64,000 nt of DNA from Oculina patagonica (taxonomy: Eukaryota): positions 23,808,001 through 23,872,000 of the forward strand of contig NC_135759.1 of assembly GCF_052425735.1 (NCBI RefSeq), written 5' to 3'. Under the pieces are notes generated by a model. The model searched no databases, had not been told where the DNA came from, and was given only the letters and a program-made list of their open reading frames with translations. The translations under genes and the position numbers were made by a program. Of this stretch, positions 50,501 through 62,300 are shown piece by piece. Numbering within the stretch: position 1 is the stretch's first letter; each line of letters starts with the position of its first letter.

Positions 50501-52656
50501 AGTGTTCCAACAATTGTGGCGTAGATTGTTGCTTGGTCAAAATTAACTCCTTGTTCATTGCAATCGATAGTTCGCTGCTAAAAAGTTAGCAGTCCATACG
50601 TGTTGCAAACTTTATCATGTCTATAAGTATTCGCTTGTTCAAGCAAACGTTCACGGCCTCTCGTCTAAAAACTTAACTGTGCACTGTACACTGGAACAAG
50701 ACTAAACTAATAAAAAGACCGTATTCGCTTTTTGAAACTAAAGTTGAGTTCTGCAAGCTGTAATACTGTTAGTAGAAAACGACCTCTTTAGTGCCCCTAC
50801 ACGTAAGCAGAGACGTAATCCGTTATTGTTTTTGGTGAGTGAGCTTGGTATCCTTAAGGCCCTGTCTAACTTTGCTTTTATTAATGGGAGGATACGATGT
50901 TTTGAAGTATTTTCACTTATAAAAAAAACTCCTCAAGTGTCCGTTAACGATTTCAAAGTGTCCGTTGTCCGTCTTAGAGAGGTGTCCGTCTTATAGGGAA
51001 TTTCGTTACAGTAAAATGACTGAAAAACGGTAGGGACTATAGCCAGGTGTCCGTGTAATGTAGGTGTCCGTTTTATTGAGGTGTCCGTGAAGAGAGAGTT
51101 TACTGTTCATCGAACCTAAATACACGACCACTATAAACAACATTTAATACTTTTTTTACATTTTACATTAGCGTATAATTTAGCGTATTATTAATTAGCA
51201 TTTGATGTGTTCAGGTTGATCAATTTTTATCCAATCTTTGTTCTTTCCCTTCACAATGTCAAATACCTTTATTCTCTGTCTTCCCTCCAAATGAAATCTG
51301 AAGTTCCTTGGAAGCTTCTGAGAATGTTTCGGGGAATTCCCCAGGCAACCACTCCTTGCCTCGTTCCAAAACACAAACTTTCTGTCCTGCTCTGGCACAG
51401 CGACTGGCAGCAATGGAACCCCCGTACCCAGATCCCACGATCACTACATCATAGTGAGGCTTGATTTCGGATGGCGGAGAGGATAAGCGAGGAAACTGTG
51501 GCGGTTGCTGTTAAGAAAATTGTTGGTCAGTAGGTCATGATAAAATGCAGGCCTAAGGTTATTTTTGTTAATTGAGAAAAAAAACAGTAAGGATTTAAAA
51601 GCAGTTATAATCAGTTGTCTGTTATCCGGCTAATGAAGGAGAAAAATTTGTTATCTTTACGATCAAATAAGCAGAATAATTTTAATAAGTGGTTCAGTAC
51701 AGGAAATAAATTATGCATTGTTATTCTTTCTTTTCATTGAAATATTTGTTTTTCTTTAAATCACAGTAACACAAGCTCAGGCTAATTTAGGTTCAAATCT
51801 TCTGAGCACTTGAAAAAAATAAGATTGACCATTTTTCTAAAACTTTAACGCCTTTAACAAAAAAAAAGGTATTCGCCCAAGTGTACCGAGGATAAAAAAA
51901 AGTTTCATTCCGCAGTCACAACTCTTTACTGTAATTTTAACTGGCACCGATTGATTTTATGCAGCTAAGTTGTCAGAAATGGCTTTGCATTTGAATAAAA
52001 CACCATGAAAACTACAATAATTTTATGCTCAGAAATAAACATGTGGCGTGACTGTTGTCTGGCTATCTCGGTTTTGTATGAAATTAATTTTTCTCCAAAG
52101 ATCTGTAAACCGAGACTTGAAATCGAAGTTCATTGTCTCCCAACATTTTTAAAAAGCCTTTTCTATATAAAAAAGTTAAATGTGACCGAATTTGTACAAG
52201 TATAAAATTTATATATCGCCACTTTCGTGACTGCCTTGGGCAATTGATTGACGTTCATAACTAAATCAAACGATGTTTTGAAAAAAACCGGGTCTACTTA
52301 CACACTGCACTGAATTCGGTTTTAACAAATCACAACAGATAAAAGCCCTTACTGCGTGCAAAAAGGATTTTAAAAACGCCGAAATAAATAGATAATCTCG
52401 GAAAATCCTTGTTTAATATTATTATCATATTAACAACATAAAAACTCATTTTATTTAGTTTGCAACATTTTTTAACCGGACCAAAAGGATGGGCCTTGAA
52501 TCAGATCTCAGGCAATTGGAATAGGTATCGAGTAGTGTGATAGATAAAATTTGAAGTAGAAGTCAACATGATCGATGGTAGTTAATTGGTTTAGAAGCAA
52601 TGCAGTCTTACCTCTGCAAAGGGATTTTTGGAATGTGAAGACGCCGAGGTTCCCAT
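32503..52656 (-). CDS. Copy B (complete, 19 coding exons, ~1654 aa): GMC cholesterol-oxidase-like domain + linker domain + alpha/beta hydrolase + LpxH-like metallophosphoesterase
   Basis: Exons: 52612-52656, 51267-51507, 49405-49895, 48507-49031, 47982-48303, 47650-47820, 45958-46188, 45013-45488, 44237-44373, 42767-42902, 42071-42387, 41085-41341, 40362-40625, 39776-39974, 38293-38473, 37321-37773, 34674-34910, 32792-32980, 32503-32595. All are GT-AG with matching phases; the total of 4965 nt ends in TAA. Motifs: GSGYGG, CTACGNCIGGC, VHPLGGC, GINP, VAHCIGS, YSHMD, SDLHLD, LGDVFE, RGDHD, AHGHDWD, LGHTH, NTGSW. Confidence 0.88.
33133..33262. other. Assembly gap (130 N) inside intron 17 of copy B
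   Basis: Run of N. Confidence 1.
33263..33690 (+). mobile_element. piggyBac-like left end with a decayed transposase N-terminus
   Basis: Starts accttgggctcc, followed by the palindrome cgggtcgtatacgacccg and ATG MAEPTFTTDEVIEQV leading to an acidic stretch. The TSD is hidden by the gap. Confidence 0.4.
34982..36343. mobile_element. Non-autonomous Mutator (MULE)-type element
   Basis: Perfect 9-bp TSD CATTAACGT (34973-34981 and 36344-36352); TIR GACACCGCGGCAGAAC / GTTCTGCCGCGGTGTC. Confidence 0.8.
36733..37219. mobile_element. MITE-like element, family of 10373..10998
   Basis: ggttttca / tgaaaaccg termini and shared internal sequence. Confidence 0.5.
38610..38898. mobile_element. MITE (Harbinger/Tourist-like)
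   Basis: tta+gagcagttttcaattgagt ... actcaagtgaaaaccgctc+taa, with internal inverted aaaccaaaaccaa/ttggttttggttt. Confidence 0.7.
38924..39175 (+). mobile_element. tRNA-derived SINE
   Basis: A-box-like tgccgagtggtt and B-box-like ggttcaag, a second gagttcaaatcc, and an AT-rich tail. Confidence 0.75.
39200..39740 (-). mobile_element. 3' end of a CR1/L2-type LINE with a (TTAC)n tail
   Basis: Minus-strand EAIKTWNSLPY and the gtaa repeats at ~39200-39230. Confidence 0.55.
40105..40170 (+). pseudogene. tRNA-like fragment (SINE-derived), truncated by a ~170-bp TIR element at 40171-40345
   Basis: gtagctcagtcggtagagcg...ggtcgtgggttcaaatc with no 3' acceptor strand, followed by gactacatgcttgtccagtttggaaa / tttccaaattggacagcatgtagtc. 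Confidence 0.5.
42950..43640 (-). mobile_element. Penelope-like element fragment (GIY-YIG endonuclease) with an inverted 5' piece
   Basis: GTVYQVQCEQCNKEYVGETSRLLETRMKEH ... KEAIEIKLRKPLLNRDNG. 43502-43531 is the reverse complement of 43610-43640. Absent in the copy A intron. Confidence 0.85.
42989..43030 (-). ncRNA. Minimal type I hammerhead ribozyme-like motif of the Penelope-like element
   Basis: Minus strand: gtga CTGATGA a gtctg gatgatat cagac GAAA tatt tcac (stem I gtga/tcac, stem II gtctg/cagac). Confidence 0.6.
43643..44080 (+). mobile_element. 3' part of a second Penelope-like element, with a hammerhead-like motif at 43981-44025
   Basis: NNHISKHHRLTNHKIDWDS ... LESWFTNLEQTPINR; tgact CTGAAGT t gaca..tgtc GAAAC gtc agtca. 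Confidence 0.7.
46669..47417. mobile_element. PIF/Harbinger-type non-autonomous element
   Basis: 3-bp TSD TTA; TIR GGGTGCGTTTCTTTGGGAAAA / TTTTCCCAAAGAAACGCACCC. The empty site (cagttaattttgtcac) is present in copy A at ~6956-6971. Confidence 0.85.
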
Positions 52657-53347: not shown

Positions 53348-56300
53348 ATGGCTAAGTCCCCGGGAAACTTGGAGTCGGGACTTACCCGATTTTTAAACAC
53401 CCTCTACGCGTGTTTTCGTTTTATGTCAAGATTTCTTGTGTGTTGCCAGTTCTGCGAATGTCCGACACATCAAAGAAAGTGTAAAAAGAAGGTTAATGGA
53501 GAACAAGGCAATGACTCACAAACGAAGAACTGTGAAAGGAGTGGTATCTCAAGTGCAGTATTTAGCTTTCCAAAGCGTTATATTTTGGTGATAATGACTT
53601 TTCTTGGTTTTATGAACATGTATGCGTTGCGTGTTAATTTGAATGTCGCTATAGGCGCAATGGTTAATAATCACACTGTTCACCAGAAAGGATACACTAT
53701 CACGCGGGTAAGTATTTACGGAATTGAAGTTTTATTTTATTTTATTTAATTGCTCTAGAACTACGTTATGAACTCGCAATGAGGTGTATTTTACCTTAAA
53801 TTTGACTCTTTATTTTTAGTTAATGAAAGATTTATGTGCTGCATTGGCAATTGTTTTCGGTTGTAAAACAGGTCTTCAATCAAAAGTAAATAGTCGCTTT
53901 ATGTGTTTCTGTGTAACTATGATTGACAACATACAATGCCCCGATATAAATCTAAATCTGATATCGTTTTATGACCTCTTATGTTTCACGTCAGCACCTG
54001 ATGATCCCAAGAACATTGAACAACTCATCGAACAATTTTCGTTGATTTTTAATGACTATTTATTTAATGATCGTTTTGACAGTAGATATAAAGTGGGGAT
54101 TCACCAACGGGAGGGCCGGGGAGGAATGACGTCACAATAGCCGGGAGGAATGACGTCACAATAACCCCCGCATCACAATAGCCGGGAGGAATGACGTAAC
54201 AATAACCCCCCGGGTTGACATCCTCAAAAAATGATGACATCATCTAAAAATACTATACACCCCCACAATCACCGGTTTAGGTGGTGGAATCTCCTCATAG
54301 TTCTAAAAATAGATCGGATGATGTAATTAGATATTTTTAGAACATAACATCATGCAATGTTCCCTCTCCCCCCTGCATTCTGGTTTATTGTCAAAATATA
54401 GATATAAATATTTTGAAAATTATATTTTAGTAAATAATATTTTGATATACGTTAAAGAATCTACATTCAGAAGTCTTTTCAGAGGTAAAATTATCGGTAA
54501 TTTAAGATTTACGGAGCAGCCGACCGAAAAGTCATGGGAGCAATTATTTCTCGTTTCCATTCTAACTCGGGCAATAGTTCGAATATAATGTATGCAGGTT
54601 GGCGCAATGTTTTGCTGTGAAAGACCATTGTCACATTTTCATAGTCCCGGCATATTTGGATCATCTTGGTAAGTTTTTGCTTCTAGTCCAAACTAGAATT
54701 AAATAACTTCGTGAACCTCAATCAACTAACGCCAAGATTTATCGCACGCGAATTCGCATCAACTTGAACTAGTATAGTTTACGAAATCAACATTTCACTG
54801 GCACTTTTTTGTTTAACGAAATTACCTTTGTAAAGTTCAGTGATGTCATAGTTTAATTTTCTACTTCATGGCGGTAGCGGTTTTCAGCATTTCAAAGTAC
54901 AGGCATAAGTACCGATTCATTTCGGTCAAAGTTTTTAGCTTTGTAATTATGCAAGTTGTCTTGTCGCATACATTTAGTACTGCTAACATACCGGTAATTG
55001 TTTTTAAAACAATGGTAAAGACTCGATGTGCTCTAGTGAACAAAGCATGACCAATCGAAAAGTTAAAACAATAGAGTGAACGCGCTTCAGTGACCTCGGA
55101 TATAAACAACGATTTCGAACCGCTTATGATAGAAAAATATCGGTAATGAGTTTAAAAAAAAAAATCATACACTAAACACACAGATTGTAAGTAAGATAAA
55201 CTTTTATTTCGATCGTTCAACATGGCATTACAATGATTTAATTTAATAATCCTCTTCTTGTCCTTTGGAAGATTTGTAAGGTGAGTTTTTATGTATTCGC
55301 CGGGAGCGTCTTGAAGGCCTTTTCGGTTCATCATCCCAGTAATTTACGAATCGGATTTGAGGTCGTTTCCGCTTTTTAGGCGGAGATAATGATTCCACCG
55401 TGGGAGGAGGGGTCAAGATCGATGGAGGAGGGGAGGGAGGTAAGGGAGTGGAAGTTGCCATGGAAGTAATTACTTGTTGGTTTGGTGTTTGAACAGGAGC
55501 TGCTGGTATTGTTACCGGTGATTCTTGAAGGGGGGTTGGCACTGTTGGTAAGTTGCCTGCGGTAGCTATTTGTTTCTGCTCTTCGGTTGCTTCTGGTATA
55601 GAATTGAGCTGGTGTTTGTATGTCAAAAACCTGTTTTGCAGCTGTATGTATTGCCTTGCTTTTTCGTCTTCTGCAAGGTCTCCACGAGAGAGAAAGCCAT
55701 CCATATTGTTCTGCAAGCGTTGCATTTCCGAAATTACCGGGGGAATCATCAAGTTTTGCTGCTTAAGATATTGCACTAGTTCCTTAGAAACGTTGCCTTC
55801 TACTTGGTCTTTTTCGAATCGTTCTTCACCAGGTAATACGTTCGTTCGCAATCTGCAACTGTCCTGAGTGGTTGGTTTAAGATCAACAAACAGATAACCA
55901 AATGGTCTCTGTACCGCGTCTTCGTACTGTTTCATAAACCAAGCAGTTTGTCCAGGATACATTTGTTTTGCTAGTGTCAAAATCTGCAGTTTGTCGCGGG
56001 GGTTTTTGAAAAGTACCAAGTAATGGCTGTTTAAGCTGATGCTTCGATTGCCTTTGCCTTGATGGAAGAGGTTTTGCACAATGTAAATGACACTCAAGTT
56101 GCGATGATGCGATCCTTTAGTAAACAGGTTCACGACTCGGTTATCACTTCCGGCTTCGATCATTTGGTCGTCGATGACAATCAAGTTTCGTTTATTAACA
56201 TCAAAGTAAAAATCTTGTTCTAAGGTCTCAGGGAACCCTACCCTCGTCTCACACTCGCTAGCCTTCAAGAGCCACCTAGGGGGTGGTGTGTTGTGAGCCT

Positions 56301-59300
56301 GTTGCAACAAAGATTAACCCAGAGCGTCTTGCCCACCTGTCATCCCGCCACCAACAGGTGGTGCCCCAAGAACCGCGACACTTTCTTGAGAAATCGACAC
56401 AATGGAAAAACCGGAAGTACTATGTTTACTGCTCATGTGTTTTGCATGCTATCTTTCCTTGAAAAATCCTTTGACAAATAGGACAGGACCAACTCATGTC
56501 AACTCTCTCACAACTCAACGAGAACTGAATTTCTTGCATTTTCACAATTATATAGACCTCGCCCATTACATTTCTATTTTTAACTTCACCACCACCACCA
56601 AAATTCTATTGTTTAAGTCCACCACCACCACCACCACCACAATTCTATTTTTATCTCCACCACCACCACCACCACCACCACAATTTATTTTTAACTCCAC
56701 CACCACCAAACTTCTATTGTTTAAGTCCACCACCACCACCACCACCACCACCACAATTCTATTTTATCTCCACCACCCCCCCCTTTTCTCCCCCCCCACC
56801 CACCACCACTTTACTCCACCACCACCACCAACACCACCACAATTTATGTTTAACTCCACCACCACCAAAATTATTTTCTCCACCACCACCACCACCACAT
56901 TTTATTTTTAACTCCACCACCACCCCCCCCCACCAAGTTTTAAAACCTACACTTTAGTATCTACTTCCTTCTCATCAACGCCAGTTTCTTCTTAAGACAG
57001 CCACCCAACAGATCACGAAGTTCGTTTCAAGGAAAAACCAAGAGAAGATAAACGTAAGTGATACCCTAAAAGGATGCTCTAGTCAACCTCGTTGAACCAA
57101 ATGTTCCCTTCAAGACAAAACGTCTTGTACAAGAGGGTGGATTATCAAGAATTATTACCCCTTTATAAGTAGTTTGGGACTTCTTATGTTATAAGAGCAT
57201 AGCTGCATCTTAAAATTGATCATTTATATCTTGCTTTTAACGAGTGCTGGTCAATATGAAGAGAAAGATAGACTGGGAGATGAAGAGGAGGAAAGCGGAC
57301 AAGAAGATAGCACAACTCTGATGACGACGAGAGCGATGACGAGGAACCTCGGATAAAAGATTTTTAAATAATCTTTCCCAAGCTGTGTCTAGAAAGTATG
57401 CTTCTGAACTGCTGCATAGCATGGCCACCTCCAAAGATATCTTGTTTTGGACACCACGCGGACAAATACTCCGAAATCAACGCATAATACCAGTAACAAA
57501 CATTCAGAACTGGTCGAGTATGTGCTACTTCCACGTAACGATGATGTAGCTAAACCCCGCGCACTCAATACCTTTTCAGAGGGACTGGCGGAGCTGGGAG
57601 TTAATAAGCGTTTGATAAAGAATAAGAAAGTTCTAAGCGATATATTACAAAAAGAACAAGCCTATCGTGATAAAGAGGAAGAGGCTGACGACGGTAACTC
57701 GACTGACAGTAACGAAGAGGAGGGAACAGCTTCTGAGGAGGGTAGTGGAGGAGGAACCTCAGGGAGCGAGAGCGATAGTGATAAAGAAGCCGAGAATAGC
57801 GATTTCGAATTATCAGACAAAAGCTAGTTCTTCATTGAACACTGCGAGGGTTCCAATGTATATGATACTGCGATCATGAAATGCCCGAAGTGCTTTTGGA
57901 AGATAACTGTAAAATGTGTCCTATATGTGAGCACGAAATCCCTCTTGACCGAAAGCAGGAAAGGATATTTCGTCGATGTTAGATTGCGGAGCTATAACAC
58001 ACAAGAAGTAAGTCATCAAAATCCACATTTTATCCCCCAAGAATGAGGAGGAAAGACGATTAATTAAATCATTTAATGCCATTTGAACGATCGAAATAAA
58101 ATTTATCTTACTTACAATCTTGTTTTAGTTATATTTTTTTTAAACTCATTACCGATATTTTTCTATCATAAGCGCGATGTTTTTATATCCGAGGTCATGA
58201 AGCGCGCACTTATTTTTTTTTTCGATTGTATGCTTTGTTCACTAGAGCACACGAGTCTTTACCATTGTTTTAAAAACAATTACCGGTATGTTAGCAGTAC
58301 TAAATTATGCGACAAGACAACTTGCATAATTACAAAGCTAAAAACTTTGACCGAAATGAATCGGTACTTATGCCTGTACTTTGAAATGCTGAAAACCGCT
58401 ACCGCCATGAAGTAGAAAATTAAACTATGACATCACTGAACTTTACAAAGGTAATTTCGTTAAACAAAAAAGTGCCAGTGAAATTTGATTTCTAAACTAA
58501 TTACTAGTTAAGTTGATCGAAGCGTCGATAAATCTTGGCGTTAGTTGATTGAGGTTCACGAAGTTATTTAATTTAGTTTGGACTAGAAGCAAAAACTTAC
58601 CAGAGATGATCCAAATATGCCGGGACTATGAAAATGTGACAATGGTCTTTCACAGCAAAACATTGCGCCAACCTGCATACATTATATTCGAACTATTGCC
58701 CGAGTTAGAATGGAAACGAGAAATAATTGCTCCCATGACTTTTCGGTCGGCTGCTCCGTAAATCTTAAATTACCGATAATTTTACCTCTGAAAAGACTTC
58801 TGAATGTAGATTCTTTAACGTATATCAAAATATTATTTACTAAAATCATAATTTTTGCAAAATATTTATATCTACTAATTTTTGACAATAAACCAGAATG
58901 CAGGGGGAGAGGGAACATTGCATGATGTTATGTTCTAAAAATATCTAATTACATCATCCGATCTATTTTTAGAACTATGAGGAGATTCCACCACCTAAAC
59001 CGGTGATTGTGGGGGTGTATAGTATTTTTAGATGATGTCATCATTTTTTGAGGATGTCAACCCAGGGGGTTATTGTTACGTCATTCCTCCCGGCTATTGT
59101 GATGCGGGGGTTATTGTGACGTCATTCCTCCCGGCTATTGTGACGTCATTCCTCCCCGGCCCTCCCGTTGGTGAATCCCCACTTTATATCTACTTTTGAC
59201 ATGCTTTCACCGACTCCAAAGGTCCAGCTGCGACACTCTATGACACAGAGATTTTTGTAAACTGCTTGCTACCGGCTGTTTGTAAATGAAAACAGCGATT

Positions 59301-62300
59301 TTGTTCGGTTAAAAAGATTTTAAGAGATAGTGCCATGTTTCCTTTGAACAAAAAAACATTACATCCGGAATCGTAAAACCATACGTTTACCGGTTTACCA
59401 ATGAGGAACTCCACTGATCAAGCAAAAATTATTCACAATTAAGATTAGTCGAGCTCATGATCAGAATCTGCAGAATGAATGTAATTTAAGCACGTTTAGG
59501 GGGATATGAACAATTCACTGCGAAATTGCGCGGAAGTTTGCCTGAAGCGTTTTGCAAGGCTTGGCATTGATCTTAGCAACCTACGTACAGTCTATATCGC
59601 AGGATATCTGTTGTGTACGGATGACGGTTAACAATGAATTTTTGACTTTTTTAATATATGAGCATCGCATACGCTTGAAGATGTAAATTTGGGGCATTTG
59701 TCAACTAAATTTTTTGCCATTTGTCAGTACTTTGTCTGTCAGCCCATCTAAAAATTTGGCCAGCTTTCCAGGTGAACCGTAATTATGTAATTATTGTAAA
59801 GGTATTATATCATTACACTCCTATACTATATGACTGATAACTTAGTAACAATTTTATATTATTTTTTAAGGAAGCAGAATTTGATTGGGATTCAAAACTG
59901 CAAGGTAATTATAGCATGATAATAAAAGCTTATTTTAAGCTAAAGTAACACATAATCACTTTTCATAGCCTCACTGCCACTGTGAAAGATATAGAGCAAG
60001 CAAACGGACGTGATGTAAAACTTTGTATTAAATGTGAAAGTACATCTTGGCTGTAAGCTAGTTTCCACGTATTCCACAAAAAAAAAATTTTAAAAATGCA
60101 AGATGACACCGAAACGTCGTTTGGTTTTTTCACTAATCTTTATAGTTAAAAATACACAATCTGTCGAAATAAATTGTAAATTAATTTCTATTTATAAAAT
60201 TCTCTATTTAAAACTATTAACATAATAACAAAATAACAGCAAAGAAACGCCAGGTTTTTTTAAAAAAGGGGGGCTTTAAAACGCCATTTTTAGTTGTGTC
60301 TACATTTGGCAATGCGAGAATATACTCTTCCTTTAAACTATGTTCAGAGTTGTGAAATGGGATTAACCGCAGGCACATCGCTCTCGAAACAACTAGGCGG
60401 ATAGTTCTCGCCGATTTCTTTGTAAACTTTCACAGTTTTTTAGGCTCACCAAGTAATTTAAATTGAATATCTCCAGTGGGCTACGTTAGTGAAAAATTAT
60501 CCCTCAAAAAAAGGTAAAAATTTCTGGGTTTTTTCCTAGTGGAGCTTTTCCAGTTTGGACGATGACGCGACTAGGAGTATTTCTGCTCCACCCTGGATGG
60601 GATGCTAGTCCATCGCATCGTTACCCCCAGCATTAAATTCGCTAGTACCCATTTATACACCTGGGTGGAGATAGGCATTGTGAAAGTAAAGTGTCTTGCC
60701 CCAAAACGCAATGCAGTATCTCAGCCAGGGCTCAAAACCCGGTCGATCTGGAGTACAGCGCACTAACCATACAGGCTACCGCGCCGCCCTCAAATAAATG
60801 TAAGTTTTACTGCAAATCCTTTATATTTGAGTGTCTGTTTGATTGACAGGTATTGTTTTGGGCTCGTTCTACTATGGATACGCCTTTTTGCAGCTCCCTG
60901 GTGGTTGCCTCGCACTCAAGCTCGGTGGCACGAGAATATTTGGATACGCCATCTTTTTAGCCTCTATGTTGACGCTTCTGACTCCAGTAGCGACACGGTA
61001 TAGTGTGTACGGCATGATCGCCGTGAGAGCAGGGGAAGGACTCATGCTGGTGAGATATGAGATGGTTTATTTGCTTATTATATTGCTTTCGGCTTACAAA
61101 GAAAGGGACGCCCTTGGGTGAGTTTCTTGTATTTGCTGCGTTTGACTTCGATCTTAATTTATTAGAGCGTACGTCAAAGCAATTTTATAGCTTTATTCGT
61201 TTGGCATAAGCTCAATAAAGGTTTGTCCTTTGTCTCGATAAAGGGGCTGGTGACCTGCGTTTATATTTGTCTTTATGTAAGAGGAGTACCGACCACTGAA
61301 AACGGTAACTTTCTTAATGTCCGACGAACTCCTCTGAGCTGAAATATCCTATATTAAACAGGACATACTGTGAAAGACCATAAATCTTCTCTAAACAATT
61401 GTTTTCTTGATATCTCTTCATTCAGTTACCTGCAGTAGCCGGAACTCAAATAAAAACATATGGAAAACAAACAAATGTTTCCTATATTCAGTTTGTAATT
61501 AATACTACTCCACAAATTACTTTACGTGCTAAGGAGATCATCTTCATGTTACAGGGCGCAGTGTTTCCTTGCAATCACGCTATATGGAGTAAATGGGCCC
61601 CTCCTCTGGAGCGAACGACTCTTGTTACCATGGCGATTTCAGGCAAGTGTATAGTTGTGATCAGTACCATTGCTCAATATGCACAATTTTAAAATTGCCA
61701 ACTGTTCTTTAATGAAAAAGGGCATTGTGACTTCGATTCCTATTCTGATAGAGCAAGCAAAGGTAAATTAAACGCTCTTTCATTAATAAACCTTGAAGGA
61801 TAATTGCTATTCACATAGGCGTACGAGGCGGGGGGGGAGGGGGGCGCAGCCCCCCAGTGCAAATTGGGCATTGGACGGGCAATAAGCCTAGAGAAAAAAT
61901 AGAAAATAAGCCGAAAGTTTAGTCAACATACGTTCAAAACGAATTACATCAGCAGGAAAAGCACTGGAATATATACCGAACTTTGTGTTCAATCCAAATT
62001 TCTCTTCATCTCTTCTCTCTCGCATGGCTATAATCATGTTCAATTTTTCTCGCAAATTCTGCGTGAGCCCTCAGTTTGATTCAAATGCAATCAGCTTTTC
62101 CATAGCTTGAGTGTTTGCGCACGGTGCGGATTTAGTGCAAGACCTTAAAACAAAGCTGTTTTAAATGTATGAAGCTAATGCTTTCGACCAGATGTTTTAA
62201 CATCTTTTTAACTTTCAACGAAATGTTTTAAAACCCATCCATCCCTAAATGTTTTACACACTTTTCTATTACTTTCAAATGGGGGGGATCAATGTAAATT

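Follow-up and report, generated by a model that had tools for sequence, protein, structure and literature searches.

A protein-coding mini-Polinton lineage in Oculina patagonica and its candidate role as a packaging satellite

Within a stretch of 64,000 nucleotides from the genome of Oculina patagonica (contig NC_135759.1 of assembly GCF_052425735.1, positions 23,808,001 to 23,872,000; termed 'the window' below, with positions counted from its first letter), an element of 5,114 base pairs displays the hallmark of the Polintons, or Mavericks: long terminal inverted repeats (TIRs), an AGT/AG-repeat end motif and a 6-bp target-site duplication (TSD). The analyses described here indicate that this element is probably a recent copy of an old, protein-coding and non-autonomous lineage of group-1-type Polintons (called 'minis' below), and that the lineage is likely a packaging satellite, the most probable purpose of which would be the preferential packaging of mini DNA in the capsids of a full-size helper. 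The features of the element are as follows:

54081 to 59194: whole element, 5,114 bp, with ends AGTAG...CTACT
54075 to 54080, forward strand: left target-site duplication, TTTGAC
59195 to 59200, forward strand: right target-site duplication, TTTGAC
54081 to 55243, forward strand: left TIR (approximately 1,163 bp)
58062 to 59194, reverse strand: right TIR (approximately 1,133 bp)
55243 to 56497, reverse strand: gene A, consisting of a C2H2 zinc finger, an A32-type packaging ATPase, a PZ N-terminal helical hairpin and a proline-rich, basic tail
55600 to 55791, reverse strand: segment of gene A with homology to the N-terminal helices in the PZ-like protein of a full-length Polinton (BLASTP E=2e-8)
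56560 to 56937: minisatellite between the divergent genes A and B, with a unit of about CCACCACCACAATTCTATTGTTT and a varying copy number
56955 to 57194, forward strand: gene B, a 108-residue PM-like small protein ending QEGGGFIQELLTPVISSLGLLML (start approximate, many deletions in the window copy)
57256 to 58063, forward strand: gene C, a PZ-like C-terminal domain with extra acidic stretches and a cysteine-rich C-terminus (frameshifted in the window copy)

The element starts with AGTAGA and ends with TCTACT (sister copies start with AGTAGT or AGTAGG), and its two TIRs agree at 1119 of 1172 alignment columns, with 48 gap columns, around an interior of approximately 2.8 kb. An initial annotation, made from the sequence alone, had described a perfect 6-bp TSD, AG..CT termini, near-identical TIRs of approximately 1.15 kb and an interior of that size, all of which were borne out, as was its proposal of a recent insertion. 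Contigs joining position 54073 directly to 59194 were found in four of four public sequencing runs (from four studies, one of them a coral metagenome), and the joint skips 5,120 bases, corresponding to the 5,114 bp of the element plus one copy of the TSD; since an empty site exists in these other runs, the insertion in the window is taken to be recent.

A search of the genome with the 2.8-kb interior (102 matches, with 40 of 94 candidates scored, and therefore a lower bound) and the retrieval of 39 stretches led to 26 loci (L021-L046) being treated as elements together with the window copy, while 11 of approximately 37 places (L047-L059, short or degraded matches) were left out. The genome thus holds at least 27 related loci, 21 of which possess both true ends, with sizes of 4.0-6.3 kb. 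Among those 21, the TSD is a perfect 6 bp in 17, agrees at five of six positions in three and is mismatched in one, and all 20 duplications are different (that of L032 was assigned separately from the script, which had picked an inner palindromic pair, and L036 was counted as a miss). Probes from two Polinton groups for polymerase, integrase, capsid, protease and pw produced no match in any of the 26 sister loci; these comprised three probes for protein-primed B-type polymerase (pPolB) and two for integrase (its type confirmed as rve), the capsid and protease probes bearing names that rest on synteny and motifs, with no match in Pfam or the PDB. The interior is wholly occupied by genes A, B and C, and the space from TIR to TIR is too small for the missing markers, so that the reported lack of polymerase, integrase and capsid genes holds for the family as well. 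The element nonetheless spreads, as indicated by the 20 different TSDs and the empty allele. This gene content forces a dependence on a helper, and it is very probable that the mini needs a helper's polymerase and integrase; lacking an integrase and a replication protein of its own, it would also rely on helper-type ends. The annotation's suggestion of a non-autonomous element mobilized in trans is accordingly supported by the outcome of two checks that it had proposed (several loci with different TSDs, and presence/absence polymorphism in the four runs), as well as by a candidate helper, described below, that shares termini with minis.

Genes B and C run opposite to gene A. In open copies gene A encodes 443-446 residues and gene C 275-278, and a strict pattern recovers full-length frames for A in nine, for B in 13 and for C in 14 of the 27 elements. 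Gene A of the closest sister copy (L022) matches Pox_A32 in Pfam at 23.2 bits, where the cut-off is 22.8, while its score against zf-C2H2 falls under the cut-off; at the level of the family, an A32/FtsK-type ATPase with Walker A and Walker B motifs is present, Walker A (GMTGSGKT) is kept in nine of nine full-length copies, and the catalytic motifs are conserved across hosts. The PZ-like segment of gene A is related to the PZ protein of the candidate helper by profile-profile comparison (probability 96.3, E=1.5e-9), and gene C matches residues 118-218 of the same protein (BLASTP E=4e-8); the helper PZ is thus split in minis, with residues 10-74 fused behind the ATPase and residues 118-218 forming the core of gene C. 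Gene B is 36-40% identical to the gene that separates atp from pz in the candidate helper, and was named PM by synteny with the atp-pm-pz module of PMC8097293.

Ratios of non-synonymous to synonymous divergence (dN/dS), estimated by the Nei-Gojobori method from pairs that are not independent, were 0.093 between subfamilies (synonymous divergence, dS, 0.55; 20 pairs) and 0.15 within subfamilies (14 pairs) for the ATPase domain, 0.059 for the core of gene C and about 0.24 for gene B. These values indicate that the three genes, atp, pm and pz, which correspond to the first Polinton module without its polymerase, are maintained by purifying selection, and three genes with ratios of 0.06-0.25 rule out a miniature transposable element with inverted repeats (MITE) or other non-coding, non-autonomous transposon. 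The minisatellite between genes A and B, a candidate cis signal (either a packaging site or an enhancer), occurs at 23 of the 26 sister loci and at 19 of the 52 metagenome loci, and had no match in 32 stretches of longer Polintons. In one degraded copy (L047-L048, G000:C1:13402400-13407700) the minisatellite is expanded to about 5 kb.

Structural and database searches added little to these assignments. The AlphaFold model of gene A was poor (mean predicted local distance difference test score, pLDDT, of 46) and its fold search yielded nothing informative; the PZ model was good (pLDDT 83) and found no significant fold match, weak rows for adenovirus capsid proteins (Z about 6, root-mean-square deviation 16-23) being rejected as evidence. 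Searches of PDB sequences with the family proteins gave no useful match, and scans of a phage collection and of IMG/VR gave none. Two sequencing runs presumed to be RNA contain contigs spanning gene A and genes B and C, and 18 reads of a polyA run and none of a small-RNA run fall on the element; both are weak hints that were not counted as evidence.

The frames of the window copy itself are broken as assembled: gene A is interrupted by many small deletions at approximately 56234-56470, the remaining open reading frame (ORF) of 356 residues has no Walker A motif, and Pfam assigned no family to the copy's own ORFs. A 'Walker-A-less ATPase' accompanied by ORF debris is therefore an accurate account of the assembled sequence and probably a misleading one of the biology, since remnants of Walker A and of the C2H2 finger are legible in their natural frames at 56300-56480 and sister copies are intact, L022 sharing the window copy's termini and having all three frames open. 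Relative to L022, the window copy carries 139 deletion events, a single insertion and 16 substitutions. Across the ORF C region the two differ by 17 deletions and two substitutions, whereas four control pairs of copies differ there by 5, 5, 28 and 31 substitutions with zero to two indels; the window arms differ from L022 by 8 and 29 deletions and by zero and three substitutions, with different bases missing from each arm, and the two arms of L022 are 99.8% alike (one substitution and two indels apart). From differences so dominated by deletions, unlike those of the control pairs, we infer long-read consensus error, and the broken frames are likely a product of the assembly. The internal junction that had been placed at approximately 56200-56300 is, correspondingly, a deletion-dense stretch colinear with L022 and not a deletion junction.

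Among longer elements of the genome, the closest ATPases reach 53-54% identity to the mini ATPase. Metagenome contigs repeat the mini layout with proteins that are 42-79% identical, genes A, B and C occurring together in 23 of 52 metagenome loci and four loci (3.8-5.2 kb) having both ends and a TSD. Among database proteins, homologues of the whole fusion, known without genomic context, show 57-83% identity, and the closest named proteins, at 95-97% identity, bear the label of Oculina patagonica, a stony coral. In a quick maximum-likelihood tree of 44 ATPases, a single clade (SH-aLRT support 95) unites 13 minis from this genome with four metagenome loci and 17 database proteins, apart from all six group-1 ATPases of longer elements in the tree, and a second mini family (L073, L095 and L096) is separate with support of 100. 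Judged from these comparisons, the mini lineage is old, multi-copy and present in several coral datasets. A post-insertion deletion, one of the two origins first suggested, was rejected because many loci and other hosts have this layout in common and because the nearest full-length ATPase is distant; of the other, a satellite mobilized in trans, the defective-interfering-like character with a dead ATPase is not supported, given the Walker A motif of all full-length copies, the purifying selection and the rearranged, long-lived lineage.

An additional property of gene A emerged from structure prediction. The complex of the helper ATPase with PZ residues 1-85 was predicted with a score of 0.70, the best control reaching 0.02 (contact agreement between runs was at least 73% and partner pLDDT at least 59; the docking mark is reached by 51 of 78 solved complexes and by two of 108 mismatched pairs). 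The predicted interface pairs ATPase residues 205-212 with PZ residues 1-9, a strand motif present in 68 of 105 stand-alone PZ proteins; both docking strands are missing from 44 of 44 fusion proteins, in which a short linker joins the same points. Because the docking strands are exactly what the fusion replaces, the mini appears to have turned a predicted non-covalent contact between motor and cofactor into a covalent one, and to have added a DNA-binding finger. On these models, the fusion suggests that PZ, the product of a core gene described as uncharacterised in PMC8097293, is a partner of the packaging ATPase.

The candidate helper is a Polinton family of approximately 15 kb, present at about six places in the genome, with the gene set pol, atp, pm, pz, pro, MCP (major capsid protein), pw, mCP (minor capsid protein) and int (L154-155, L170-171, L174-175 and L081-082); the first three of these copies have both ends and TSDs. 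Its integrase was confirmed by Pfam, and the other names derive from synteny, from motifs and from resemblance to a polymerase that is positive for PF03175. Minis outnumber this family, with at least 27 loci against six mCP matches at 81% or above. Of the 21 minis, 10 have at least 100 bp of their first 300 bp in common with helper termini at an identity of 80% or more (up to 95%), and none of the 21 reaches that level with six other termini. The ends of L042 match those of the helper at 93-95% from base 1, while the ATPase genes of the two are only 66-68% alike in DNA. Similarly, L025 and L027 are separated by a dS of 0.003 in gene A and match from approximately base 205 inward, yet their outer 200 bp are unrelated on both arms. 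Unrelated ends on near-identical minis would be expected if linear DNAs recombined while replicating together and panhandle copying then followed, a process familiar from adenovirus biology.

The left TIR of the window copy is likewise a mosaic of three modules with different distributions: (i) the outer 215 bp or so, complete only in the window copy and L022, with three copies of a repeat whose TGACGTCA core we take to be a CRE/ATF-like site (cAMP response element/activating transcription factor); (ii) bases 215-353, common to short elements that encode only pPolB or only zinc fingers, with 140 bp at 86-90% shared with the polymerase-only elements; and (iii) bases 352-1163, common to one mini subfamily. 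A full-length helper with the window's own outer TIR, which the initial annotation had proposed to look for, was not found in the genome, where that outer TIR occurs only at the window and L022; termini of the L025 and L024 types likewise belonged only to short elements among the matches examined. A partial match to the window TIR at C9:22080437 was discarded, as it lies outside the adjoining 18.75-kb Polinton and is part of another short element. In one helper-family copy (L084:8992 to L086:4530, G000:C2:45598992-45614530; TSD ATAAAG) an extension of the opposite arm stands where the polymerase would be. The candidate helper polymerase (L155:1866-5435, reverse strand) has a C2H2 finger and a weak VSR-endonuclease-like stretch, an arrangement comparable to that of a marine nematode pPolB2 (10.1101/2023.08.22.554363).

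In the mechanism that would unite these observations, a full-size Polinton would supply the protein-primed polymerase, integrase, protease and capsid; the mini would co-replicate with it as linear DNA, and new ends would be copied to both arms through panhandle intermediates. The zinc finger may recognize satellite DNA, perhaps the minisatellite, and so bias packaging; the mini's own zinc-finger/ATPase/PZ fusion would get its DNA packaged, and the mini would then spread in helper capsids. The broader proposition, of a class of integrative, capsid-less double-stranded DNA satellites that belongs to animal Polintons, with a self-specific motor, a minisatellite mark and swapped terminal origins, is given an even chance.

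Several points weigh against this interpretation. The helper-family ATPase falls outside the mini clade without a supported sister position in the quick tree, the database proteins of that clade come without genomic context, and the pairs behind the dN/dS values are not independent. Two short metagenome contigs (L138 and L147) bear broken pw and mCP fragments beside gene A, so that second-module DNA is not wholly foreign to the lineage. The window terminus and the L023 and L024 types, which together account for 11 of the 21 minis, have no match among helper termini; most helper-family copies seen are frameshifted, and many other Polinton families have open polymerases, ends having been examined for three longer group-1/2 elements outside the helper family. 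The proposed satellite is known here from sequence and predicted structure. Intact Mavericks are moreover reported to be size-constrained near 17 kb (PMC8097293), so that a 5-kb genome may package poorly.

Of the alternatives, the one that survives best, although it is unlikely, is a helper-dependent element that spreads only within cells and keeps its genes in order to interfere with, or modulate, Polinton assembly. A split PZ and a fused ATPase could poison the helper's ATPase-PZ contact, and the excess of minis over helper mCP matches, as well as a length far under the reported Maverick size, would suit such an element; conserved catalytic motifs and the position of the ATPase as the most constrained domain, however, suggest a working motor rather than a decoy, and ongoing insertion indicates selfish spread. 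Less probable again is that the mini is the packaging-gene segment of a Polinton population that is multipartite or whose members complement each other, with polymerase, capsid and integrase carried by other TIR-bounded segments. The genome does contain TIR elements of 10.8-11.6 kb with only a polymerase, polymerase-less elements of 9.8 kb (two loci whose TSDs differ), and other short cargo elements with common terminal modules, and the window TIR shares its 140-bp module with the first of these; yet each of the two capsid-bearing types has an ATPase and a PM of its own and no need of a mini segment, complete elements of 15 kb are present, frameshifts occur in the polymerase-only copies seen, and the termini of the supposed segments are unmatched as a set.

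The packaging-satellite reading is challenged far less by a neutral deletion derivative or classical defective-interfering genome, formed here or recently, which is very improbable: TIR extensions and near-palindromic, copy-back-like derivatives do occur in the genome (L032, L072, L091-094 and L152-153), but the divergence of the nearest full-length ATPase, the inverted gene order and split PZ, the same layout in other hosts and purifying selection within and between subfamilies all argue against it. Collapse of a full-length element during assembly, although the window copy contains many apparent sequence errors, is scarcely credible when twenty other loci of the same size class have their own TSDs and metagenome contigs of other datasets display the same short layout.

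Comparison with known systems places the element as a candidate satellite of Polintons, rather than an autonomous Polinton, a MITE, a transpoviron or a simple defective genome. The phage satellites P4, phage-inducible chromosomal islands (PICI) and PICI-like elements (PLE) are, like minis, integrative, capsid-less, helper-dependent and about one third the size of their helpers, and they encode their own selected packaging-specificity proteins; minis differ in being eukaryotic and varidnaviral, in lacking an integrase or replication protein of their own, and in showing no homology to them. MITEs and other non-autonomous DNA transposons also keep the ends and TSD of an autonomous partner and outnumber it, but minis encode three conserved proteins, their interior is not a recent deletion product, and their ends are renewed by exchange. 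Defective-interfering genomes share with minis helper-type termini on a shortened genome, but are transient, near-identical deletions of a parent, whereas minis are a diverged lineage with their own selected genes; such a genome is ruled out here, since the genes of minis and of the nearest full-length family agree at only 53% in protein and 66-68% in DNA. The independence expected of a satellite lineage is seen in that 53-54% ATPase identity, the separate clade and the shared layout in other hosts.

With Polintons/Mavericks themselves (polintoviruses, adintoviruses), minis share the group-1 virion module, the same AGTAG(T) ends, long TIRs and a 6-bp TSD, and an A32-type ATPase accompanied by PM and PZ homologues (PMC8097293). 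They differ in size (4-6 kb as opposed to 15-25 kb), in the absence of pPolB, integrase, protease, capsids and pw, in the fusion of the ATPase to a C2H2 finger and the PZ N-terminus, in the inversion of pm and the remaining pz to the other strand, and in possessing a minisatellite of their own. Transpovirons are similarly small, linear, TIR-bounded and capsid-less parasites of DNA viruses from the polinton-like pool (PMC11071308); according to the same source they keep a replication protein, lack the structural module and travel in giant viruses, whereas minis keep packaging genes, have lost replication and integrate. A transpoviron, in which a pPolB-derived superfamily 1 helicase would be expected as the replication protein, is ruled out by the presence of genes A, B and C only, none of which is a helicase by Pfam or homology.

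No such elements are described in the parts available of the Polinton/Maverick literature searched (including PMC8502044, PMC11296320, PMC6431247 and 10.1101/2025.02.07.637071), a scope outside which lie the founding papers of 2006-2007 and Repbase, where non-autonomous Polintons may be listed. The term 'non-autonomous polintons' has been applied to Tlr1 (PMC5499653), and partial Polinton copies of 13-15 kb are reported from C. elegans (PMC11414722). A survey of corals required MCP, mCP and ATPase genes and a length of at least 10 kb (PMC11131425), and surveys of that kind miss minis, even though minis outnumber the candidate helper here. Whether animal Polintons form infectious particles is a long-standing question, and a parasite that keeps only a packaging motor under strong selection would constitute indirect evidence for Polinton packaging; minis would also provide a small and abundant marker for particle preparations from corals. 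If the satellite interpretation is correct, minis would be a eukaryotic counterpart of phage satellites, their retained gene set would mark PZ and PM as packaging factors, and a second, separately derived family of zinc-finger-ATPase minis would represent a repeated evolutionary solution.

That second family (L073:2944-6490, L095, L096, L097, L098 and L067; for example, G000:C12:26475400-26479000) encodes a different zinc-finger-ATPase fusion, 36-41% identical to gene A, with acidic and cysteine-rich cargo genes and the same terminal modules, and its finger resembles a small zinc-finger gene located beside the helper ATPase. The polymerase-only elements (L063:1874 to L064:4695, G000:C235:118874-129695, and L065:1908 to L066:5565) have TIRs of 2-2.4 kb and no genes beyond a small zinc-finger gene and an alpha-type pPolB, which is frameshifted and bears zinc fingers at its N-terminus, while the 9.8-kb polymerase-less Polintons (L088:6902 to L089:6673, G000:C5, and L156:6822 to L157:6575, G000:C9) carry ATPase, protease, capsids and integrase, with a rearranged third copy on C6. 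Near-perfect palindromes with Polinton ends and duplicated small genes (L091-L094, L072 and L152-153) measure 5.3-6 kb with arms of 2.4-2.7 kb; L092 and L093 contain a short, secreted-looking gene resembling leucine-rich repeats, and L152-153 consists of helper atp and pm arranged as a palindrome of 8 kb. Further short elements of 2-9 kb (L176-L180 and L182-L188) combine acidic, cysteine-rich or zinc-finger genes with termini of the L024 or L042 type. The 18.75-kb Polinton on C9 (L060:8817 to L062:7571, G000:C9:22060817-22079571; TSD CATTAT) is of group-2 type and sits within the arm of another short TIR element, about 1 kb in.

The element in the window lies within a host gene:

53510 to 61061, forward strand: host context, an intron of a transporter gene of the major facilitator superfamily (MFS) type, with exon-like frames at approximately 53510-53709 and 60850-61060

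The transporter frames match MFS_1 with E=0.005, under the cut-off, and the gene is presumably SLC17-like, as judged from its motifs. Just downstream of the element, positions 59590-59650 are occupied by a host repeat with very high read depth, and a small array of TGTCCGT repeats is located at 50966-51088.

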